Positions 4,291-58,197 of a DNA stretch of 64,000 nt are shown here, one piece after another; positions within the stretch are counted from its first letter, which is position 1; every line of letters begins with the position of its first letter. A program made the position numbers and the translations under genes. Source of the stretch: Escherichia phage PC3; sequence record ON184125. The stretch is one strand, 5' to 3'. The notes under the pieces are model-generated. The model was not told the origin of the DNA, made no database searches, and saw only the letters and a program-made list of their open reading frames with translations.

Positions 4291-4294
4291 TCCC

Positions 4295-4331
4295 TAAATA
4301 CCCCCATCATCCATGGGGGTATTTTCTTATG
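4295..4331 (+). promoter_or_regulatory. Hairpin cassette: TAAATA-containing 5' arm, SD-containing 3' arm (GGGGGTATTTTCTTATG), start codon
   Basis: Stem atacccccat/atgggggtat; 3' arm plus start almost identical to the endolysin cassette at 43204-43242. Confidence 0.45.
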
Positions 4332-5057
4332 AACGCACAGATCTATGACGCCCTATCACAGGGCAACGCCTTTACCAATCCTCTCCCGTCCCTCAGCAGC
4401 GCCTCACAGGGGTTAATCACCAGCGGTAAGGCGACTACAGAGTCACTGGCTAACACCGGAAATGCGCAGATTCAGGAAGCGCTGACGGCAGGTGGGTTGA
4501 CTACAGCCAAACTCAACGAATCTACAGCAATGTTCAACTCAGCCAACAACAGCATCACTACTTTGAACAACTATGGCGACCAGTCAGTGAAAGAGGCATA
4601 TTCCCGCATCGGTACATCTGTGTCGTATAAGTCCGCCCTGAAGTCTATAGGTCGAGAACCGAACAACTGTGATCTGATCAATAATGCATTTGGGGTTATT
4701 CAGAACCTCGGCAAACAGTGGATCAACACCATGCAAAGTGTTCTCACAACTATCACAAACAAGATGAATGAGCTGGCTGAGTTGGTAGCTCAGGGCGTCG
4801 GTGCTGGTCTTGATGCTATTCAGGCACTGGCTGCTGAAGTTACTCAGGCCATCGACACTGCTGTCGCATCAGTAGCCTCTATTGCTCAGGACATCACGAA
4901 CGGTATTGCAGCAGAGTTAGCCCATATCCAAGACATGGTTGGTAAGTGTCTTAACTTCTCTTTTGCCAACGTGATCTCAGAGTGGGCGAAAGATATCTGC
5001 GCCGGAGGTGTCATCAACAGCATTGGTTCCGATAATCTGAAGAACGCACTGAAGTAA
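4329..5057 (+). CDS. Hypothetical protein (242 aa), Ser/Thr/Ala/Asn-rich, likely late gene
   Basis: ORF 4287-5057 trimmed to ATG directly after hairpin cassette; no enzymatic motif. Confidence 0.45.
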   Translation: MNAQIYDALSQGNAFTNPLPSLSSASQGLITSGKATTESLANTGNAQIQEALTAGGLTTAKLNESTAMFNSANNSITTLNNYGDQSVKEAYSRIGTSVSYKSALKSIGREPNNCDLINNAFGVIQNLGKQWINTMQSVLTTITNKMNELAELVAQGVGAGLDAIQALAAEVTQAIDTAVASVASIAQDITNGIAAELAHIQDMVGKCLNFSFANVISEWAKDICAGGVINSIGSDNLKNALK

Positions 5058-5465
5058 TCAGTGCTCCCGCGCCGGAAGAACTCCCACTGGTTCGATGCCA
5101 TCCAACAGCAGGGAGTTCACACCCACATTACTCAGTCTGATCAAGATCGTTCCCCCTGGGTTAACTTCAAAGATACTCATCCCATTTCCAACCGCGTCGT
5201 TGTTAACGAACACGCCCTGAGTTGCGATTCGTACTGGTTTATCTGTGTCATTCATGATCTTGAACGTCACGATTATATCCGATGTTGTACCCAGTCGTCC
5301 AACCATGCGTTGCTTCAGCTTGGCGTAGAATGATGGATTAAAGGTGATAATGATGCTGTTGTTCTGAGAGTAATAAATACTTGCTGAAATGTATGGTATC
5401 TTCCCTTCATCGCCATGCCGCAGGAGAGGAATTGTGGTCTTCCAGTATGGCTTGAGGGTGCTCAT
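5058..5465 (-). CDS. Hypothetical protein (135 aa)
   Basis: C-terminal part of minus ORF 5058-5873 from internal ATG (MSTLKPYW...); the upstream part of that ORF is low-complexity and overlaps a better plus-strand frame. Confidence 0.4.
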   Translation of the reverse strand: MSTLKPYWKTTIPLLRHGDEGKIPYISASIYYSQNNSIIITFNPSFYAKLKQRMVGRLGTTSDIIVTFKIMNDTDKPVRIATQGVFVNNDAVGNGMSIFEVNPGGTILIRLSNVGVNSLLLDGIEPVGVLPAREH

Positions 5466-5523
5466 GTTCTCATCAAAGCAACCTAAAGGTACGAGTTTCT
5501 GGAAGGGCTGGAACTCTTGCACG

Positions 5524-6747: not shown

Positions 6748-7494
6748 ATGGCATCTCTCCAGGATCTACGCAAGCTGAATGACTTCGAAAACCGTCATTA
6801 CACATTTCAGCAATACGAACTTCCTCATAAGGAACTGGAGTGTGTTACGACGGAGAATGGTCGTCATTACGTTTCACCGTCTGGTGTAAAACTGACATCC
6901 GTCACGACTATGCTGGGACGCACTGGAGATCATGAATGGCTTGAGTCTTGGAGGAAGAAGCTGGGCGCAGAGGCCGCTGATCTTGAGACCATGCGCTGTG
7001 CTGACCGAGGGGAGAAGCTGCACCTTGCGTGTGAACTGTATCTAAAGAACCGCCCAATGAAAGAAGTGTTGGAAGCGGCTGGCGAATACATGTTCATGTT
7101 CAAGCAGCTGTTCCCTTACCTGAACAAGATGACAAAGATCTATGCTCAGGAGATCCCATTATATAGCGAGGTGCTTGGTCTTGCAGGTCGTGTAGACCTT
7201 ATCGGGGTTTATGAGGGTAAACCTGCTGTCATCGACTTCAAGACATCGAACACCATGAAGACGCGGGGCATGATCGAGGATTACAGTATCCAGCTGTGCT
7301 TATATTCGGTCATGTTCCAGCAGATGTTCGGCGTCAAGATCACCCGCCTCATCAACGTTATTGCCAACGAGTCTTCCCCTCTACCAACCGTCATTGAGTT
7401 CAACCGTGATGACATTCTGACAAAGATGTTTGAGCGTGTTCGTCTGTATCATCGCATGGATAAAGAACAAAACGGAGTCTGGTCGGATCACTAA
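6748..7494 (+). CDS. PD-(D/E)xK family nuclease (RecB/Cas4-like exonuclease fold)
   Basis: Motif RVDLIGVYEGKPAVIDFKTSN typical of PD-(D/E)xK nucleases. Confidence 0.55.
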   Translation: MASLQDLRKLNDFENRHYTFQQYELPHKELECVTTENGRHYVSPSGVKLTSVTTMLGRTGDHEWLESWRKKLGAEAADLETMRCADRGEKLHLACELYLKNRPMKEVLEAAGEYMFMFKQLFPYLNKMTKIYAQEIPLYSEVLGLAGRVDLIGVYEGKPAVIDFKTSNTMKTRGMIEDYSIQLCLYSVMFQQMFGVKITRLINVIANESSPLPTVIEFNRDDILTKMFERVRLYHRMDKEQNGVWSDH

Positions 7495-7522
7495 ATACCC
7501 CATAATCCTTGGGAGATTTTGT

Positions 7523-9031
7523 ATGGCAGACATTCAGATTGTTAAGGTTAACGAAGTCCGCATGCGTTGCATCGCAGATCTTTCTATCAGGGAAGAACTT
7601 AATGACTACTTCAAATTCGAAGACCCGAACTTCGTTCCCAACCCCTTCTCTAAATGGGACGGGGTTGTCCGCCTATTTACCAAGTCATCTGGTCTAATCG
7701 ATATCGGTCTGCTGTTTGAGGTATTTAAGTTCTGTAAGAACAACGGATACACCATTGAACTGGATCCGGCACTGAAGTACATTCAGGACATCCCAGATGA
7801 AGAAATCCGTGAATTCATCGACAGTCTGCATCCAAAGATCCGTACCGAAAATCACGAATATATCGATGCCGAGACTCGTGACTACCAGTACGACACCATC
7901 GCCAAGGCTATGCGTCAAACCAGATGCGTCTGTGAACTGGCTACGAGTGCCGGTAAGTCCTTTATTCTGTATGTCATGGCGCGGTACTACAGGCGGCGCA
8001 GAGAAGCTCTCGAAAGTCCTCTGAAGACGCTTATCGTGGTGCCGTCAATCCACCTAGTCACTCAGCTGTACGACAACTTCGAAGAGTATGCGCATGGCAG
8101 TGATTGGAAGCCCGTTGTTAACACCCAGCTGATTTTTGAGGGCGCGACAAAGGAGATCAGCAAACCAATCGTCATCAGCACATGGCAAGGCATTCAAGAC
8201 CAGCCGAAGGAATGGTTCCACCAGTTCGGTGATATCGTGGTGGATGAAGTGCACACCTCCAAGTCTGAGAAACTGTCTTACATCCTAAACAACTGCATCT
8301 ATGCCGACCAGCGCCTGGGGGTTACAGGTACGCTGGCGAATACCAAAGTTGCCGGGCTTCAGGTGGTGGCTCACTTCGGGGCGTACCATAAGATCATCAC
8401 GGCTCGCGATCTCATCAATCTCGGGTACGCCACTGACATCAAAGTGAAGATGATTCAGCTGAAGCACACTCCGGCGGATGCTGTTGGTCTGGACGGGGAT
8501 TATTCCAAGGAAATAGAATACCTCATTACACACCAGTCCCGCAACGAACTGATCGCCAAGATGGCACTGAATCTGAAAGGAAACGTGGCCATCATGTTCG
8601 AGCGTATTGATGGTCACATGATGGTCGTGTATGATATGCTGAGCGCAGTCAAGCCCAACGTGTTTGTCATCAACGGGGAAGTGAAGATCGAAGACCGCCG
8701 CCGCATACAGAAAGCGATGGAGGATGGAGAGGACATCACCCTGTTGGCATCATACGGGACAATGCAGCAGGGAGTGTCGATCAAGAAGCTACACCACCTT
8801 GTACTGGCACACCCGAGCAAGTCATATATCCGCGTCATACAGACATTGGGTCGTCTGATGCGTCAGCACTCCTCTAAGGACGTCGCGTGGATATGGGACT
8901 TAGTGGATGATGCATCGTACAACGCCAGCACGAACCACACTCTTAGGCACTCTCACGAGCGTTACAAGTTTTACCTGGCAGAGCGCCACCCCGTGGAGTT
9001 CATGAAGGTGGCGCTGGGTAATCACGATTAA
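7523..9031 (+). CDS. uvsW: SF2 DNA helicase, UvsW-like
   Basis: Walker A TSAGKSF, DEVH box, further SF2 motifs; ORF 7430-9031 trimmed to ATG after GGGAG. Confidence 0.6.
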   Translation: MADIQIVKVNEVRMRCIADLSIREELNDYFKFEDPNFVPNPFSKWDGVVRLFTKSSGLIDIGLLFEVFKFCKNNGYTIELDPALKYIQDIPDEEIREFIDSLHPKIRTENHEYIDAETRDYQYDTIAKAMRQTRCVCELATSAGKSFILYVMARYYRRRREALESPLKTLIVVPSIHLVTQLYDNFEEYAHGSDWKPVVNTQLIFEGATKEISKPIVISTWQGIQDQPKEWFHQFGDIVVDEVHTSKSEKLSYILNNCIYADQRLGVTGTLANTKVAGLQVVAHFGAYHKIITARDLINLGYATDIKVKMIQLKHTPADAVGLDGDYSKEIEYLITHQSRNELIAKMALNLKGNVAIMFERIDGHMMVVYDMLSAVKPNVFVINGEVKIEDRRRIQKAMEDGEDITLLASYGTMQQGVSIKKLHHLVLAHPSKSYIRVIQTLGRLMRQHSSKDVAWIWDLVDDASYNASTNHTLRHSHERYKFYLAERHPVEFMKVALGNHD

Positions 9032-9759: not shown

Positions 9760-10428
9760 ATGCAAGAGATCACTCTCTCCGAACGTACACTTCAGTTGCT
9801 GGCCAACTTTGAGACCATCAACCCATCTATCGTTCTGACACCGGGCAAGATGCTGCGCAGTATTAATGATTCTTCTACTGTGATCGCCGTGGCGCAGATC
9901 GAAGAAGACTTCCCGTTTGAGTTCCCGATTCTGGACCTGACCAAACTTCTGGCCATCCAGCGCCTACCTTCCTTCAAAGGTGCCAAAGCCGAATTCCATC
10001 AGGACTACATCCTGTTGAAAGGCGAAAGCTCTCAGCTGCAATTCTGGCGTTCTGCTAAAGAACTCACGGTTGTCCCGGCTGATACTATTGAACTGCCGTC
10101 TGTCGACTTTGAAGCGATCATCACTCCAGAGAAGATGAAAGAACTGACCCGCGCCTGTTCTACCCTCGGACACAAGACTGTGCGCCTGGTTGCTCAGGGT
10201 GGCAAAACTCGCCTGGTTGCAACCACCACTACCCTGGACAACTCCAACAACTACACTGTTGAGCTGGGCGAAACCGCGCTGCCGGACTTCGTAATGCCAC
10301 TGGATGTTGCCAACCTGAAAATGATCGAAGGCAACTACACTCTGCGTGCATGTGCTGATCTACAAATGGTGAACTTCCAATCATCCGACGCGACGATCAA
10401 TTACTTCGTCGGCGCGCAGATTGAGTAA
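9760..10428 (+). CDS. 45: Sliding clamp (gp45-like)
   Basis: 222 aa; similar to T4 gp45 along its length (N-terminal LLANFETINPSIVL..., C-terminal KMIEGNYTL...); followed by clamp-loader genes. Confidence 0.85.
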   Translation: MQEITLSERTLQLLANFETINPSIVLTPGKMLRSINDSSTVIAVAQIEEDFPFEFPILDLTKLLAIQRLPSFKGAKAEFHQDYILLKGESSQLQFWRSAKELTVVPADTIELPSVDFEAIITPEKMKELTRACSTLGHKTVRLVAQGGKTRLVATTTTLDNSNNYTVELGETALPDFVMPLDVANLKMIEGNYTLRACADLQMVNFQSSDATINYFVGAQIE

Positions 10429-30294: not shown

Positions 30295-31086
30295 ATGGGA
30301 ATGAACTTCGTGGACAGAGGGGAGAATGTCGTCAAATATTTCACAGACGAAGATAACGAGCGTGTCATCAGTATCCTTCGTGATTGGATCCCTGCTCGTA
30401 AGAAGGCTCTGGCTGAAGGCACCAGGCTTCCAAAGATCCCCAACTATGTTGCTCTACAGGTCCAGCGCATCATCACCAAGATGAGCACCCGCTACAACTA
30501 TCGCGACTATCCCTTCCGTGAAGACATGGTCTCTGAAGCAATAGTCAACATCTTGCGCTACCTCCACACATTTGACGTCGAACACATTGGAAAGAAAGGG
30601 AAGATCAACTTCTTCTCTTGGGTGACCATGTGTGCTGATCGATCATTCGCTCGTAAACTGAATATCGAAGAAGAGCACACGTACATTAAATTGCGCTCAT
30701 TTGAAGAGGCGGGTGGGTTCGCAGGCCTGGCAGACGATCCCGACTTCCAACAAGAGGTCTTTGTTGATGCTACAGGAATTGGCATGGACTTCCGTGAACG
30801 TATCGGCAACTTTGAGAACAAAAAGGACGCTCAAAGGCAGAAGGAACGAGAGAAGGTGGAGGCAGCTCGTCTCGCAGAATCGAATAAAAAGATTGCGAAA
30901 GGCATACTTCAATACATGGCGCAGGCTAAGAATACGGTAACAGCGCAGGCCGAAGACAATTCAGATCAGGACTTCGGCAAAACCCAATTCAATCTGGAAG
31001 ATGATATCTGTGCGATGGAACCAGATTGGGAAGCCCTCAAACAAAGATTAGAAGAACGGGAGAAAAAGAACAATGGCGATTGCTAA
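30295..31086 (+). CDS. 55: Late-transcription sigma factor (gp55-like) with C-terminal charged extension
   Basis: N-terminal 150 aa collinear with T4 gp55 (DW.., ..FD.., NFFSWVTMCADRSFARK vs NPHAYITQACFNAFVQR). Confidence 0.7.
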   Translation: MGMNFVDRGENVVKYFTDEDNERVISILRDWIPARKKALAEGTRLPKIPNYVALQVQRIITKMSTRYNYRDYPFREDMVSEAIVNILRYLHTFDVEHIGKKGKINFFSWVTMCADRSFARKLNIEEEHTYIKLRSFEEAGGFAGLADDPDFQQEVFVDATGIGMDFRERIGNFENKKDAQRQKEREKVEAARLAESNKKIAKGILQYMAQAKNTVTAQAEDNSDQDFGKTQFNLEDDICAMEPDWEALKQRLEEREKKNNGDC

Positions 31087-39982: not shown

Positions 39983-40015
39983 AATCCCCCTAAATACAGG
40001 GGGATTTCTTTTTCT
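39983..40015 (+). terminator. Rho-independent terminator
   Basis: aatccccc-taaataca-gggggatt stem-loop followed by TCTTTTTCT. Confidence 0.8.
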
Positions 40016-40382: not shown

Positions 40383-40626
40383 GTCAATACGAAATAAAGG
40401 CATATAATTTTGCTCATTATTCACCGAAAGGAAAGGACAATGAGCAAAATCTTTATCCCGTCACATGCGCAGCTACATGAATCTCTTGGACAACTTCGCC
40501 CACTTCGAGCACAACACGGCTGGTAAACAAATATTTTGTATAGAGGGCTTGTCGACCACTGTGTATAGCTCAAAGTCGTGATGTAGACTATACTGTGACC
40601 GAAGTGTTCCAGAGGCAGAAGATCTA

Positions 40627-42824: not shown

Positions 42825-43162
42825 ACCAGATCGATATCAAGGTTGAATGGTTCGCGAACAAACGATCTTATTATGCGTTCATATACGCCATAGAATGTTG
42901 TCAGAAACTTCAGAATCTCGCGAATAAGGGATACACATTCATTGACCAATATTCTAATGTTCGGAAGAACTGGGAGATTGAGATCGACGGCTCAGAGTCA
43001 TGTGTACTCCTCGACAGAACATGTTTCGCTGGTGGGGAATGGGTTGAAACTCCAGAAGGGAATAAGATCTGGTGTACCAAGAAAGCCGTTGACAGCTTCT
43101 TGAGACACATCAGATGCATACCACCTTCTAATTTGAAGACTGCTTTGTCCCACGTTTCATAG
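42821..43162 (+). CDS. Hypothetical protein (113 aa), AT-rich codon usage
   Basis: ORF 42620-43162 trimmed to ATG in ATGA overlap with upstream stop. Confidence 0.4.
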   Translation: MNQIDIKVEWFANKRSYYAFIYAIECCQKLQNLANKGYTFIDQYSNVRKNWEIEIDGSESCVLLDRTCFAGGEWVETPEGNKIWCTKKAVDSFLRHIRCIPPSNLKTALSHVS

Positions 43163-43203
43163 TATAATTCTGTTCCTCGAGTAGTTCACTTTCACTTTCA
43201 CTT

Positions 43204-43242
43204 TAAATACCTCTGCATTCATTGTGGAGGTATTTTCTTATG
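43204..43242 (+). promoter_or_regulatory. Hairpin cassette at endolysin start: TAAATA-containing 5' arm, SD-containing 3' arm (GGAGGTATTTTCTTATG)
   Basis: Stem aaatacctc/gaggtattt; same architecture as 4295-4331 and resembles T4 gene e early/late translational control. Confidence 0.45.
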
Positions 43243-44034
43243 GCCATTCTAAAACTTGGCAACCGTGGCACTGAAGTGAAGGCACTCCAGGATAGCCTCA
43301 ACAAAATCGGCTTCACCCTCGTCGCTGATGGTATCTTTGGCAAGGCAACAGAGAACGCCGTCAAGACTGTTCAGGCGGGTGCGGGGCTTGTCATTGATGG
43401 TATCGTGGGTCCAAAGACCTCCTATGCTATTCGCAACGCCGGAGACGCCCATCAGGATCATCTAACTGAGTCAGACCTGATTGATGCTGCTAACGATCTG
43501 GGTGTTGACCTTGCCTCTGTCAAGGCGGTGAATCAGGTTGAGTCGCGCGGCACGGGCTTCACCAAGTCAGGTAAGATCAAGACATTATTTGAGCGCCACA
43601 TCATGTATAAGAAGCTGATGGCGAAGTTCGGACAGGCTCGGGCGAATGCCATGGGGCATATGTACCCGACGTTGGTCAACCCTTCTGCAGGCGGGTACAC
43701 GGGCGGCGACGCGGAGTTGGATCGACTTCATGCGGCCATCAACATCGATGAGGATTGTGCGTACGAGAGCGCCTCTTACGGTCTCTTCCAGATCATGGGA
43801 TTCAACTGCCAGGTCTGTGGATATGCCAACGCCAAGGAGATGTTCAACGACTTCCTGACAGGAGAACGTGCTCATTTGATGGCATTCGTGAAGTTCATCA
43901 AGGCCGACGCCAAGCTCTGGCAGGCTCTGAAGGACAAGAACTGGTCTGAATTTGCGCGGCGCTATAATGGTCCAGCGTATGCCAAGAACCAGTACGACAA
44001 GAAGCTCGCAGCAGCATACAAGAGTTTCAGTTAA
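43240..44034 (+). CDS. Endolysin: N-terminal peptidoglycan-binding domain plus muramidase-like catalytic domain
   Basis: LKLGNRGTEVKALQDSLNKIGF ... DGIFGKATENAVK PG-binding repeat; C-terminal domain resembles phage N-acetylmuramidase family. Confidence 0.7.
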   Translation: MAILKLGNRGTEVKALQDSLNKIGFTLVADGIFGKATENAVKTVQAGAGLVIDGIVGPKTSYAIRNAGDAHQDHLTESDLIDAANDLGVDLASVKAVNQVESRGTGFTKSGKIKTLFERHIMYKKLMAKFGQARANAMGHMYPTLVNPSAGGYTGGDAELDRLHAAINIDEDCAYESASYGLFQIMGFNCQVCGYANAKEMFNDFLTGERAHLMAFVKFIKADAKLWQALKDKNWSEFARRYNGPAYAKNQYDKKLAAAYKSFS

Positions 44035-44038
44035 CTCA

Positions 44039-44064
44039 AAGGCCGGAAACGGCCTTTTCTTTAT
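44039..44064 (+). terminator. Rho-independent terminator
   Basis: aaggccg-gaaa-cggcctt stem-loop followed by TTCTTTAT. Confidence 0.8.
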
Positions 44065-44979: not shown

Positions 44980-45062
44980 GTAACTCGCCAACCCTCCCCG
45001 CCGCCTTCAATCTACGAGGGCGGCGTATAATAAAACCTGCGTAAACAAACCCGAGGAACACC

Positions 45063-54393: not shown

Positions 54394-54400
54394 CCCGGCG

Positions 54401-54447
54401 TAAATAGCCCATACACCAATGAAACTTCGTTATGGGCTATTTACATG
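54401..54447 (+). promoter_or_regulatory. 13-bp inverted-repeat hairpin abutting the RuvC-like start codon; 5' arm contains TAAATA
   Basis: taaatagcccata ... tatgggctattta ending 1-2 nt before ATG 54445. Confidence 0.4.
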
Positions 54448-55035
54448 AAATATTGCGGAATCGACTACTCCTATGGCTGTCCATCCCTGTGCTTCTGGGA
54501 TGATAAAGACCCTCTTGATTTTGATCATCTGCGCTTCTACGCATATTATACTGTGGAGAAGTACTGCACTCAGATTCGTCAGAACATCCTTATCATGAAG
54601 CAACCGAAGTGGGATACCCCAGAAGAACGCTTCTATAACATCTGTAAATGGGCTGAGGCTGTCCTGTTGACTGAGAAGCCGGATGTGATCACTCTTGAAG
54701 GGTATGCTATGGGCAACTCTAAGAACTCCAATAACATATGCCAGACCGCAGAGAATACCTCACTGTTGAAGCAAGCCCTGCGCCGTAACAATTTCGACTT
54801 CCAGATCGTGACGCCATCCCATGTGAAGAAGATGTTCACCGACAAGGGCAACGCCGATAAACACGTCATGATCGCTCACTTCGAGTCACTGTTCAATGTT
54901 AGCATGCGCGGTATAATGGATATGTTGGAAGTTAAGGATCCCAAGCCAATCGATGACCTCGTGGATTCGTTTGCGATAATGGCTTGTGGCTCTTACTTCA
55001 TTGAGAATAATCCAGACTTCAACAGAGGTATATGA
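54445..55035 (+). CDS. RuvC-like Holliday junction resolvase
   Basis: N-terminal MKYCGIDYSYG and later acidic residues in a RuvC-like arrangement; assignment from motif memory. Confidence 0.5.
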   Translation: MKYCGIDYSYGCPSLCFWDDKDPLDFDHLRFYAYYTVEKYCTQIRQNILIMKQPKWDTPEERFYNICKWAEAVLLTEKPDVITLEGYAMGNSKNSNNICQTAENTSLLKQALRRNNFDFQIVTPSHVKKMFTDKGNADKHVMIAHFESLFNVSMRGIMDMLEVKDPKPIDDLVDSFAIMACGSYFIENNPDFNRGI

Positions 55036-55346: not shown

Positions 55347-55578
55347 TTATCAATGCAAGGGCTGTGGTAACGCGATGACACTGCGTAAATCTATTGCAGA
55401 TCGCCATGAGCCTGAATCCAACCCCTGCACTGAGTGCGGAGGGGAGATTAAAATGATCGTGGGTGCTCCCAAGATTGTCTCTGGGGTGAAGGGACCACAA
55501 TCAGCTCCAGACGGCTTCAAGGACGTCTTGCGTACGATAAAGAAGGGTTCGGGTAAGGGGAACACAATCGATGTCTGA
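55333..55578 (+). CDS. FmdB-family zinc-ribbon protein
   Basis: MPLYDYQCKGCGN ... CTECGG paired CxxC beginning with the characteristic Y-x-Y-x-C. Confidence 0.5.
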   Translation: MPLYDYQCKGCGNAMTLRKSIADRHEPESNPCTECGGEIKMIVGAPKIVSGVKGPQSAPDGFKDVLRTIKKGSGKGNTIDV

Positions 55579-55816
55579 CGAAAAACAGCCAGCGCTTGTG
55601 ATGACACCAGAATTATTTTCTGAAATCGTCCTACTACGCGCCGCCCAAACCAAGGATAGTATCCTTGAGACTCTGGCAGCTGTCTGTGAAGAGAACGACA
55701 TAGACGAGACCAAAGTCAAAAAGATGATTACAGCACCATTGTTGTCACGACTGACAGCTGAGTGCTCCGATGCGCGCCTGATCAAAGACGCGCTAAAGTC
55801 CAAGAAATTAGTGTAG
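55571..55816 (+). CDS. Hypothetical protein (81 aa)
   Basis: ORF overlapping upstream gene by 8 nt. Confidence 0.4.
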   Translation: MSDEKQPALVMTPELFSEIVLLRAAQTKDSILETLAAVCEENDIDETKVKKMITAPLLSRLTAECSDARLIKDALKSKKLV

Positions 55817-58150: not shown

Positions 58151-58189
58151 GGTGAGGACTCCACTTAAATAAAATAAAATAACTGTTAT

Positions 58190-58197
58190 TATTTATA
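58190..58197 (-). promoter_or_regulatory. T4-type late promoter-like box TATAAATA (minus strand)
   Basis: Exact TATAAATA on minus strand in the 58-bp divergent gap upstream of minus gene start at 58150. Confidence 0.4.

Follow-up and report, generated by a model that had tools for sequence, protein, structure and literature searches.

We analysed a window of 64,000 nucleotides, i.e., the whole stretch of phage DNA presented here, which is 100% identical to positions 32001-96000 of the PH4 record (ON184126.1; Ackermannviridae, Aglimvirinae). The genome-wide counts were taken from that record. The region is common to approximately 250 related phages, including those of Agtrevirus, Kuttervirus, Limestonevirus and Taipeivirus. 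Within it, the endolysin gene is the final gene in a co-oriented run starting at the primase gene, and the terminator-like hairpin on its 3' side would end the endolysin transcription unit. Directly upstream of the endolysin gene, a TAAATA box, a hairpin and an SD are combined in one cassette, and similar cassettes precede ORF4329 and the gene of a RuvC-like resolvase. In the general layout of these cassettes, the 5' arm of the hairpin consists of the TAAATA box and the next 6-8 bases, and the 3' arm consists of the SD and its spacer. The coordinates of the features are listed in Table 1.

Table 1. Cassettes, associated genes and late-transcription genes in the window
Feature	Position	Strand	Basis
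TAAATA late-promoter box, endolysin	43204..43209	+	orthologous LIMEstone1 box annotated 'putative late promoter'
Endolysin hairpin, 5' arm (box minus its first T, plus CCTCTGCA)	43205..43217	+	folding
Endolysin hairpin, 3' arm (SD GGAGG 43226-43230 plus TATTT spacer)	43223..43235	+	folding
Endolysin CDS (PG_binding_1 + N-acetylmuramidase PF11860)	43240..44034	+	domain matches
Terminator-like hairpin 3' of endolysin	44038..44057	+	scan; orthologous LIMEstone1 position also annotated as terminator
Closest upstream same-strand early-type motif to endolysin, GTCAAT-N14-TATAAT	40383..40408	+	motif search
Second cassette (box 4295-4300, 5' arm 4296-4307, loop 4308-4312, 3' arm 4313-4324)	4294..4331	+	folding
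DUF7217 protein (ORF4329)	4329..5057	+	LIMEstone1 orthologue ORF129
Third cassette (box 54401-54406, 5' arm 54400-54413, 3' arm 54431-54444, ATG 54445)	54400..54447	+	folding
RuvC-like Holliday junction resolvase CDS	54445..55035	+	annotation, domain search
Imperfect cassette before helicase gene	7491..7525	+	interrupted stem, weak sequestration
gp55-like late sigma factor	30301..31086	+	annotation; phrog_234, E 3e-52
gp33-like late-transcription coactivator	55571..55816	+	PF16805, E 8.5e-18
gp45-like sliding clamp	9760..10428	+	phrog_223; Pfam match weak

Hairpins at the starts of three genes

The endolysin cassette is composed of TAAATA, CCTCTGCA (43210-43217), the loop TTCAT (43218-43222), TGTGGAGGTATTT (43223-43235), TCTT and the ATG at 43240-43242. 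RNAfold showed a stem of 13 bp between 43205-43217 and 43223-43235, with a free energy of -16.1 kcal/mol (z = -3.9). None of 200 shuffled sequences folded as well, and the stem is stable, as the original prediction of gene e-style control supposed. The SD is wholly paired in this structure. The prediction had also placed the endolysin start codon within the hairpin, which was slightly overstated because the AUG lies 4 nt beyond the stem and is unpaired in the MFE structure. The AUG is likewise unpaired in the other two cassettes, being 4 nt off the stem at ORF4329 and directly after the stem at the RuvC-like gene.

A near-identical cassette ahead of ORF4329 and a third TAAATA hairpin adjoining the RuvC-like start had been predicted as well, and folding confirmed both, so that all three hairpins are present with energies of -16 to -21 kcal/mol and z values of -3.9 to -6. 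The second cassette, CTAAATACCCCCAT..ATGGGGGTATTTTCTTATG, forms 12 bp (-17.2 kcal/mol, z -3.9) and carries the SD GGGGG at 4315-4319. The third forms 13-14 bp, with -17.2 kcal/mol for the 50-nt segment 54401-50 (z -6.0) and -21.1 kcal/mol with the closing G-C pair. The sequence GGRGGTATTTTCTTATG is present twice. Mass spectrometry has confirmed that the LIMEstone1 orthologue of ORF4329 is a structural protein of the virion. At the ORF4329 and RuvC cassettes, the preceding ORF ends 5-7 nt 5' of the stem, and a terminating ribosome might therefore partially open these two stems. The imperfect cassette before the helicase gene has the arms CTAAATACCCC..GGGAGATTTT.

Upstream of the endolysin box, approximately 30 nt (43175-43203, CCTCAAGT..TTCACTTTCACTT) are almost invariant in the enterobacterial genera examined. 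This block is not kept in Serratia phage 3M, and the sequence farther upstream diverges. CACTTT repeats are also found upstream of the box, three in PH4 and two in its relatives. T4-type late promoters are not known to have an upstream element that would account for the conserved block. As a candidate early promoter, TATAAT at 43163 was also considered and rejected; it has no -35 at a usable spacing and is found only in PH4 and its closest relative.

The TAAATA box and the late-transcription machinery

The motif CTAAATAcCcc has been published as a regulatory motif of viunalikeviruses (Ackermannviridae), and the passages on it in PMC7283392 and PMC3296691 treat it as a promoter motif alone, without mention there of SD pairing or translational gating. 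This motif provides the box of all three cassettes: the match is exact at 4294-4304 and has two mismatches each at 43203-43213 (TTAAATACCTC) and 54400-54410 (GTAAATAGCCC). In the LIMEstone1 record (HE600015), the same hexamer is annotated as 'putative late promoter' before the endolysin gene, the ORF4329 orthologue and ruvC. Both the family motif and this annotation bear out the view that the TAAATA in the endolysin 5' arm is late-promoter-like. Of the 66 TAAATA copies in the PH4 genome, 27 have an annotated start on their own strand 24-56 nt downstream, compared with 1.3 expected by position (approximately 20-fold). TAAATACCYC at up to one mismatch occurs 14 times against 3.9 expected. The window also contains genes of a gp55-like late sigma factor, a gp33-like coactivator and a gp45-like sliding clamp. 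In T4, the sliding clamp gp45 is the activator of late transcription. The late box of T4, 8 bp long, spans -13 to -6 (PMC2988020). By analogy, +1 is predicted near 43215, 4306 and 54412, which would keep 2-3 nt of each 5' arm.

Other TAAATA copies were found in different settings. A strong terminator-like hairpin at 39986-40012 (CCCCCTAAATACAGGGGG then ATTTCTTTTT) has a TAAATA in its loop that is probably no promoter, indicating that a TAAATA near a gene start is not always a promoter. Overlapping TAAATA pairs on opposite strands serve divergent genes at window positions 58166-58195 and at 110738-110765 of the PH4 record; these inverted repeats have an origin unlike that of the SD-sequestering hairpins.

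Opening cost and possible read-through

For each of the 191 annotated genes, we computed an opening cost, defined as the free energy required for positions -16 to +3 to become unpaired in RNA that includes 80 nt upstream; its median was 6.6 kcal/mol. In read-through RNA, the cost was 20.9 kcal/mol for ORF4329 (3rd of 191), 18.5 kcal/mol for the RuvC-like gene (5th) and 18.2 kcal/mol for the endolysin gene (6th), placing the three cassettes of the window in the 97th-99th percentile. Ranks 1, 2 and 12 were taken by additional TAAATA cassettes elsewhere in the genome. A start 6 nt past the box reduces the 5' arm to 2-3 nt, and RNAs starting 5-8 nt past the box showed opening costs of 6.0-7.6 kcal/mol, which is the genome norm (7.5 kcal/mol for the endolysin in its late form). 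Between the read-through form and the predicted late form of the 5' UTR, the opening cost thus falls from 18-21 to about 6-7.5 kcal/mol, in line with the original prediction. The sites 10486, 23807 and 61123 of the window, which are also strongly sequestered, were rejected as cassettes because their hairpins are common 5' UTR structures that follow a TATAAT box and not a TAAATA box.

The upstream neighbours of all three cassette genes are co-oriented with them. The published early-type motif TTCAAT-N14-TATAAT has 25 sites in the window at up to two mismatches, compared with 4.7 expected, mostly on the + strand. Such motifs lie upstream of the cassettes at 40383 (endolysin), 1884 and 2145 (ORF4329) and 53048 (RuvC). 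The motif closest to the endolysin gene (Table 1) is the likely source of read-through RNA across the primase gene to the endolysin, and the scan showed no + strand terminator-like site from this motif to 43204. More generally, the terminator scan gave no convincing + strand terminator between the early-type motifs and the three cassettes. The motifs and the scan are suggestive of read-through of early transcription into the cassettes.

Exact copies of the early-type motif occur, for example, at 45006-45031 and 54892-54917. An exact copy within the 3' part of the RuvC-like gene seems to drive downstream genes, including the gp33 homologue.

Comparison with T4 gene e and proposed mechanism

In the T4 genes e, soc, 49 and I-TevI, the SD and/or AUG is sequestered in early and middle transcripts, and late promoters immediately upstream produce RNAs without the 5' strand of the helix (PMC3014915). 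The inhibitory hairpin of gene e, which contains late promoters, goes back to McPheeters et al. 1986, as reviewed in PMC3014915. On the one hand, the T4 e leader and the PH4 endolysin leader are alike. The T4 leader folds as UAUAAAUACCUUC-UAUAAAUACUUA-GGAGGUAUUAUG; its 5' arm is the late box followed by ACCUUC, its 3' arm is GGAGGUAUU, and the two pair as in PH4. The stability is -14.9 kcal/mol in T4 (z -4.0) and -16.1 kcal/mol in PH4, both with z of about -4, and the gated product is an endolysin in both. The likeness to gene e, which had been proposed at the outset, was also recovered by the covariance model R1, trained on 19 Ackermannviridae cassettes alone and on no T4 sequences: R1 finds the T4 e leader over all 41 positions with 21.8 bits, at E 0.0013 in the 1.1-kb locus and E 0.3 over 252 kb.

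On the other hand, T4 belongs to the family Straboviridae, whereas the cassettes described here belong to Ackermannviridae, and T4 lysozyme is not homologous to the PG_binding_1 + PF11860 muramidase. T4 gene e has two late promoters, in the 5' arm and the loop, and a paired AUG, whereas a single box and a free AUG are found here. The T4 late box TATAAATA is followed by AT-rich sequence (PMC2988020), whereas (c/t)TAAATA is followed by C-rich bases here; the counterpart of TATAAATA at 43202-43209 is the 8-mer TTTAAATA. The mechanism of T4 gene e was demonstrated experimentally, and that of PH4 is predicted from sequence. Among the other gated genes of T4, gene 49 (endonuclease VII) parallels the RuvC-like resolvase and soc parallels the DUF7217 virion protein, a comparison that is drawn from the review PMC3014915 and concerns proteins that are not orthologous. 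Considering that non-homologous proteins with T4-like functions (endolysin, resolvase and virion protein) would be gated, we consider that this argues for selection on the logic, beyond the sequence.

Repeated intergenic modules that combine a promoter with a stem-loop, as here, have reportedly been described by Arbiol et al. in 2010 as the PeSL cassettes of T4-type phages. The promoters of the PeSLs are reportedly early sigma-70 promoters, and the role put forward for these cassettes is in recombination and modular shuffling, not in SD sequestration. No Rfam family reached the gathering threshold in the whole window, and 43100-43300 gave chance-level matches alone.

Based on these features, we propose that RNA would contain both arms of the hairpin when its transcription begins farther upstream, either at a co-oriented early or middle promoter or at another late promoter. 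In this RNA, the box and the C-rich bases following it would act as an anti-SD that pairs with the SD and spacer and blocks 30S binding. A polymerase dependent on gp55, gp33 and the clamp would read the TAAATA box within the 5' arm, and late transcription would begin approximately 6 nt past the box, so that the late RNA would retain 2-3 nt of the 5' arm. In such RNA, the SD would be exposed and the gene would be translated late. The upstream read-through, the late transcript starts and the actual translational repression are the steps that we infer. The window agreed with every prediction of the gene e model that was checked in silico, which supports gene e-style gating, and we consider it probable that these are T4 gene e-type cassettes with a late promoter embedded in an SD-hiding hairpin. 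Cassettes are also present ahead of late-cluster genes (tail spikes and a head closure protein), for which shielding from early read-through is less obviously needed. Accordingly, the role is better described as making a gene translatable only from its own promoter than as protection from early expression.

Transcription termination as an alternative

A serious rival is that the hairpins are mainly intrinsic terminators or insulators with an embedded promoter. In this case, upstream RNA would end at the U-rich tail before the AUG, and RNA started inside the hairpin, which cannot form it, would escape termination. This would give the same outcome at the transcriptional level and is compatible with gating, and we regard termination as an unlikely main function, although partial termination may accompany gating. 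In the endolysin and ORF4329 cassettes, GC-rich cores (CCUCUGCA/UGUGGAGG and CCCCCAU/AUGGGGG) enclose loops of 5 nt and run into UAUUUUCUU. In the endolysin cassette of 3M, UUUUUCAUU comes after a GC-rich stem of 8 bp, and UAUUUUUAU follows the Kuttervirus RuvC cassette. Considering the ends of the endolysin, ORF4329 and 3M cassettes, these might terminate transcription. Without the AU pairs at the base of the stem, the cores of the endolysin and ORF4329 hairpins have 7-8 bp and a loop of 5, and then TATTTTCT (6 T in 8). These two cassettes also share the AAAUA / GC-rich stem / UAUUUU layout of bidirectional intrinsic terminators. Additionally, 28-nt 'factor-independent terminators' of LIMEstone1 adjoin the endolysin and ORF129 hairpins. 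In HE600015, these features (L052:1224-1251 and L056:959-986) begin at most 5 nt 3' of the hairpins and enter the CDS, and they may be coordinate-shifted calls on the hairpins themselves.

However, the terminator scan called none of the three cassettes, and the RuvC cassette, as read from its sequence, does not fit a terminator in loop or tail. The U tails of several cassettes are poor (GAAAUG, CGAUAUG and UAUUUACAU), and the UAUUU of the 3' arm is imposed by pairing with the box. A terminator does not require an SD at a set distance from the AUG, whereas in all the cassettes examined the 3' arm is located just a few nucleotides 5' of the AUG. Unlike in bidirectional terminators, the SD is always in the 3' arm here, the U tails are variable or poor, and the A-tract arm holds a promoter. 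Furthermore, the hairpin of T4 e shares this layout, and transcription passes through it (PMC3014915).

Selection on the pairing

In the swap test, we compared the box region of 27 box-plus-start pairs from the whole genome with its own and with all other ribosome sites. The matched duplexes formed two separate groups, 8 of the 27 at -12.4 to -23.3 kcal/mol and 19 at -0.9 to -8.1 kcal/mol. Mismatched pairs had a mean of -5.2 kcal/mol, and all three cassettes of the window had matched energies within the lowest 1% of the mismatched pairs.

Compensatory changes were found in orthologues from Agtrevirus, Limestonevirus, Kuttervirus, Taipeivirus, Miltonvirus and Nezavisimistyvirus. In the RuvC leaders, for example, CCCAUAAC/GUUAUGGG is changed to CCCGUAAC/GUUACGGG, A-U is replaced by G-C in 3M and Ea2809 and by U-A in L036, and one whole G-C pair is present in PH4 and absent from LIMEstone1. 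In Serratia phage 3M, the endolysin leader has CCCUCUG/CAGAGGG in place of CCUCUGCA/UGUGGAGG of PH4, and in the ORF4329 leader CAU/AUG is changed to CAC/GUG. For a formal count, we used seven RuvC leaders, leaving out PH4 and L025 because the paired G-C indel puts PH4 out of register in the MAFFT alignment. In this set, 97.8% of cells were paired, three pairs were changed on both sides, and the covariation score was reached by 1 of 500 shuffles. In a set of 19 distinct cassettes, 92.5% were paired compared with 77.3% after shuffling, and 42 double-change cells were found against 12.8, a result reached by none of 500 shuffles; every slid register scored much lower. This larger set mixes orthologues and paralogues and therefore tests complementarity within each cassette, not descent, and its count is conservative because PH4 stays mis-registered.

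The 22 folded leaders (21 cassettes and T4 e) contain 15 G-U pairs. In all five enterobacterial endolysin leaders, the sense strand folded more stably than the antisense strand, which did not hold for the Serratia 3M leader, and the G-U pairs of the T4 e leader likewise favour the sense strand. Since G-U pairs stabilise the sense strand in the endolysin group and T4, this points to an element that acts as RNA, not DNA.

A further possibility is that the hairpins are a functionless by-product. TAAATAcCcc is the reverse complement of a good SD with an AU-rich spacer (GGGGTATTTA), and hairpins would thus arise automatically; indeed, the lower 9-10 bp of every stem pair the promoter motif with the SD and spacer, and the CCCC of the motif is present even at boxes without hairpins. 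We consider this quite improbable, because cassette-specific pairing continues 3-5 bp past the motif (CUGCA/UGUGG, CAU/AUG, CAUA/UAUG and CGC/GCG), the 19 boxes without a hairpin are separated in duplex energy from the 8 others, and both-side changes and a paired indel preserve the stem across genera.

The hairpins could also be elements of RNA processing or stability, either as protective 3' hairpins of the upstream message or as sites of an RNase III- or RegB-like cut at the GGAG of the SD. T4 RegB cleaves GGAG within SDs (PMC3014915), a putative RegB endoribonuclease is annotated in a related phage, and hairpins sit directly after upstream stop codons. This explanation is likewise quite improbable, given that GGAG is found in the endolysin cassette only, the others having GGGGG or GGGC, and that it does not account for the constant use of the promoter box as the 5' arm. 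Finally, a DNA-level inverted repeat, i.e., a site for a dimeric protein, a cruciform or back-to-back late promoters, is suggested by TAAATAGCCC on both strands of the RuvC repeat and by the real divergent TAAATA pairs mentioned above, but it is very improbable, since the minus-strand box is missing from the other two cassettes of the window (AAAATA) and from the Kuttervirus, Taipeivirus and 3M RuvC orthologues, the G-U pairs tolerated in the stems are A-C mismatches on the opposite strand, and there is no minus-strand gene to drive. Because this box is not conserved, the RuvC palindrome was ruled out as a minus-strand promoter.

Based on the swap test, the orthologue changes and the formal counts, we consider the SD-hiding hairpin to be under selection. 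The boxes, the stems and their stability, the covariation, the energetic switch, the late-machinery genes and the match to T4 e are established computationally. Outside Ackermannviridae, no TAAATA hairpin was found at the RuvC homologues of Vibrio phage K447 (42% identity) or Pseudomonas phage pf16 (35%), indicating that the cassette is not tied to the RuvC gene there.

Cassettes across the genome

The feature is not specific to the endolysin: the genome contains at least 9-10 cassettes, that of the endolysin included. The others include those of three tail-spike genes, the head-closure protein and a 55-aa membrane protein, as well as a TGAATA variant. It is possible, although rather doubtful, that these represent a rule across Ackermannviridae, in which at least 9-10 late genes would carry a modular promoter/anti-SD/SD unit and be silent on polycistronic read-through RNA, perhaps partly terminated. 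If this rule were true, the timing and dosage of each gene would be set solely by its own promoter.

Several of the individual sites showed further details. The cassette of tail spike 2 (PH4 record 5455-5500, CTAAATACCCCATA..TATGGGGTAT) was found by R1 and was not in its training set. The annotated ATG of this gene at 5483 lies inside the 3' arm, and an in-frame ATG at 5498, five codons on, has the usual GGGG-N9; accordingly, the start is probably annotated 15 nt early. The cassette of the 55-aa protein (PH4 record 134214-134251, - strand) has the top opening cost of the 191 genes, 23.3 kcal/mol, which falls to 3.5 kcal/mol in the late form. This protein has a single membrane helix at its N-terminus, followed by a coiled, charged tail, and matches phrog_3879, which has no assigned function; it could act in lysis timing. 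Between two annotated genes at record 145450-145485 (- strand), a hairpin resembling the cassettes has a variant box, TGAATACCCCATAC..GTGTGGGGTAT followed by ATG, and possibly precedes an unannotated small ORF. SD-sequestering hairpins with a sigma-70-type -10 (TATAAT/TATGAT) and not TAAATA were found at record 102290-102382 and at 146765 (- strand), with the -10 hexamer at the top of the 5' arm or in the loop. Based on the TATAAT unit at record 102379, the promoter-in-hairpin layout may extend beyond late promoters.

In the searched literature, we found no description of hairpins at Ackermannviridae late promoters and no transcript 5'-end, 3'-end, transcriptome or translation data for this family. 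The control mechanism itself is already known from T4, and Ackermannviridae are a further example of it; the presence, conservation and multiplicity of the cassettes in Ackermannviridae appear to be undescribed in that literature.

These phages are widely used in the biocontrol of Salmonella, E. coli, Dickeya and Klebsiella. In their genomes, the cassette can be used as a guide to late genes and to wrongly placed start codons, and its approximately 40 nt provide a portable part for phage engineering that would allow translation solely from the part's own promoter. For genes with a cassette, transcript abundance would not be predictive of protein timing. In summary, our study would extend the classic post-transcriptional switch of T4 to a second family of large virulent phages.
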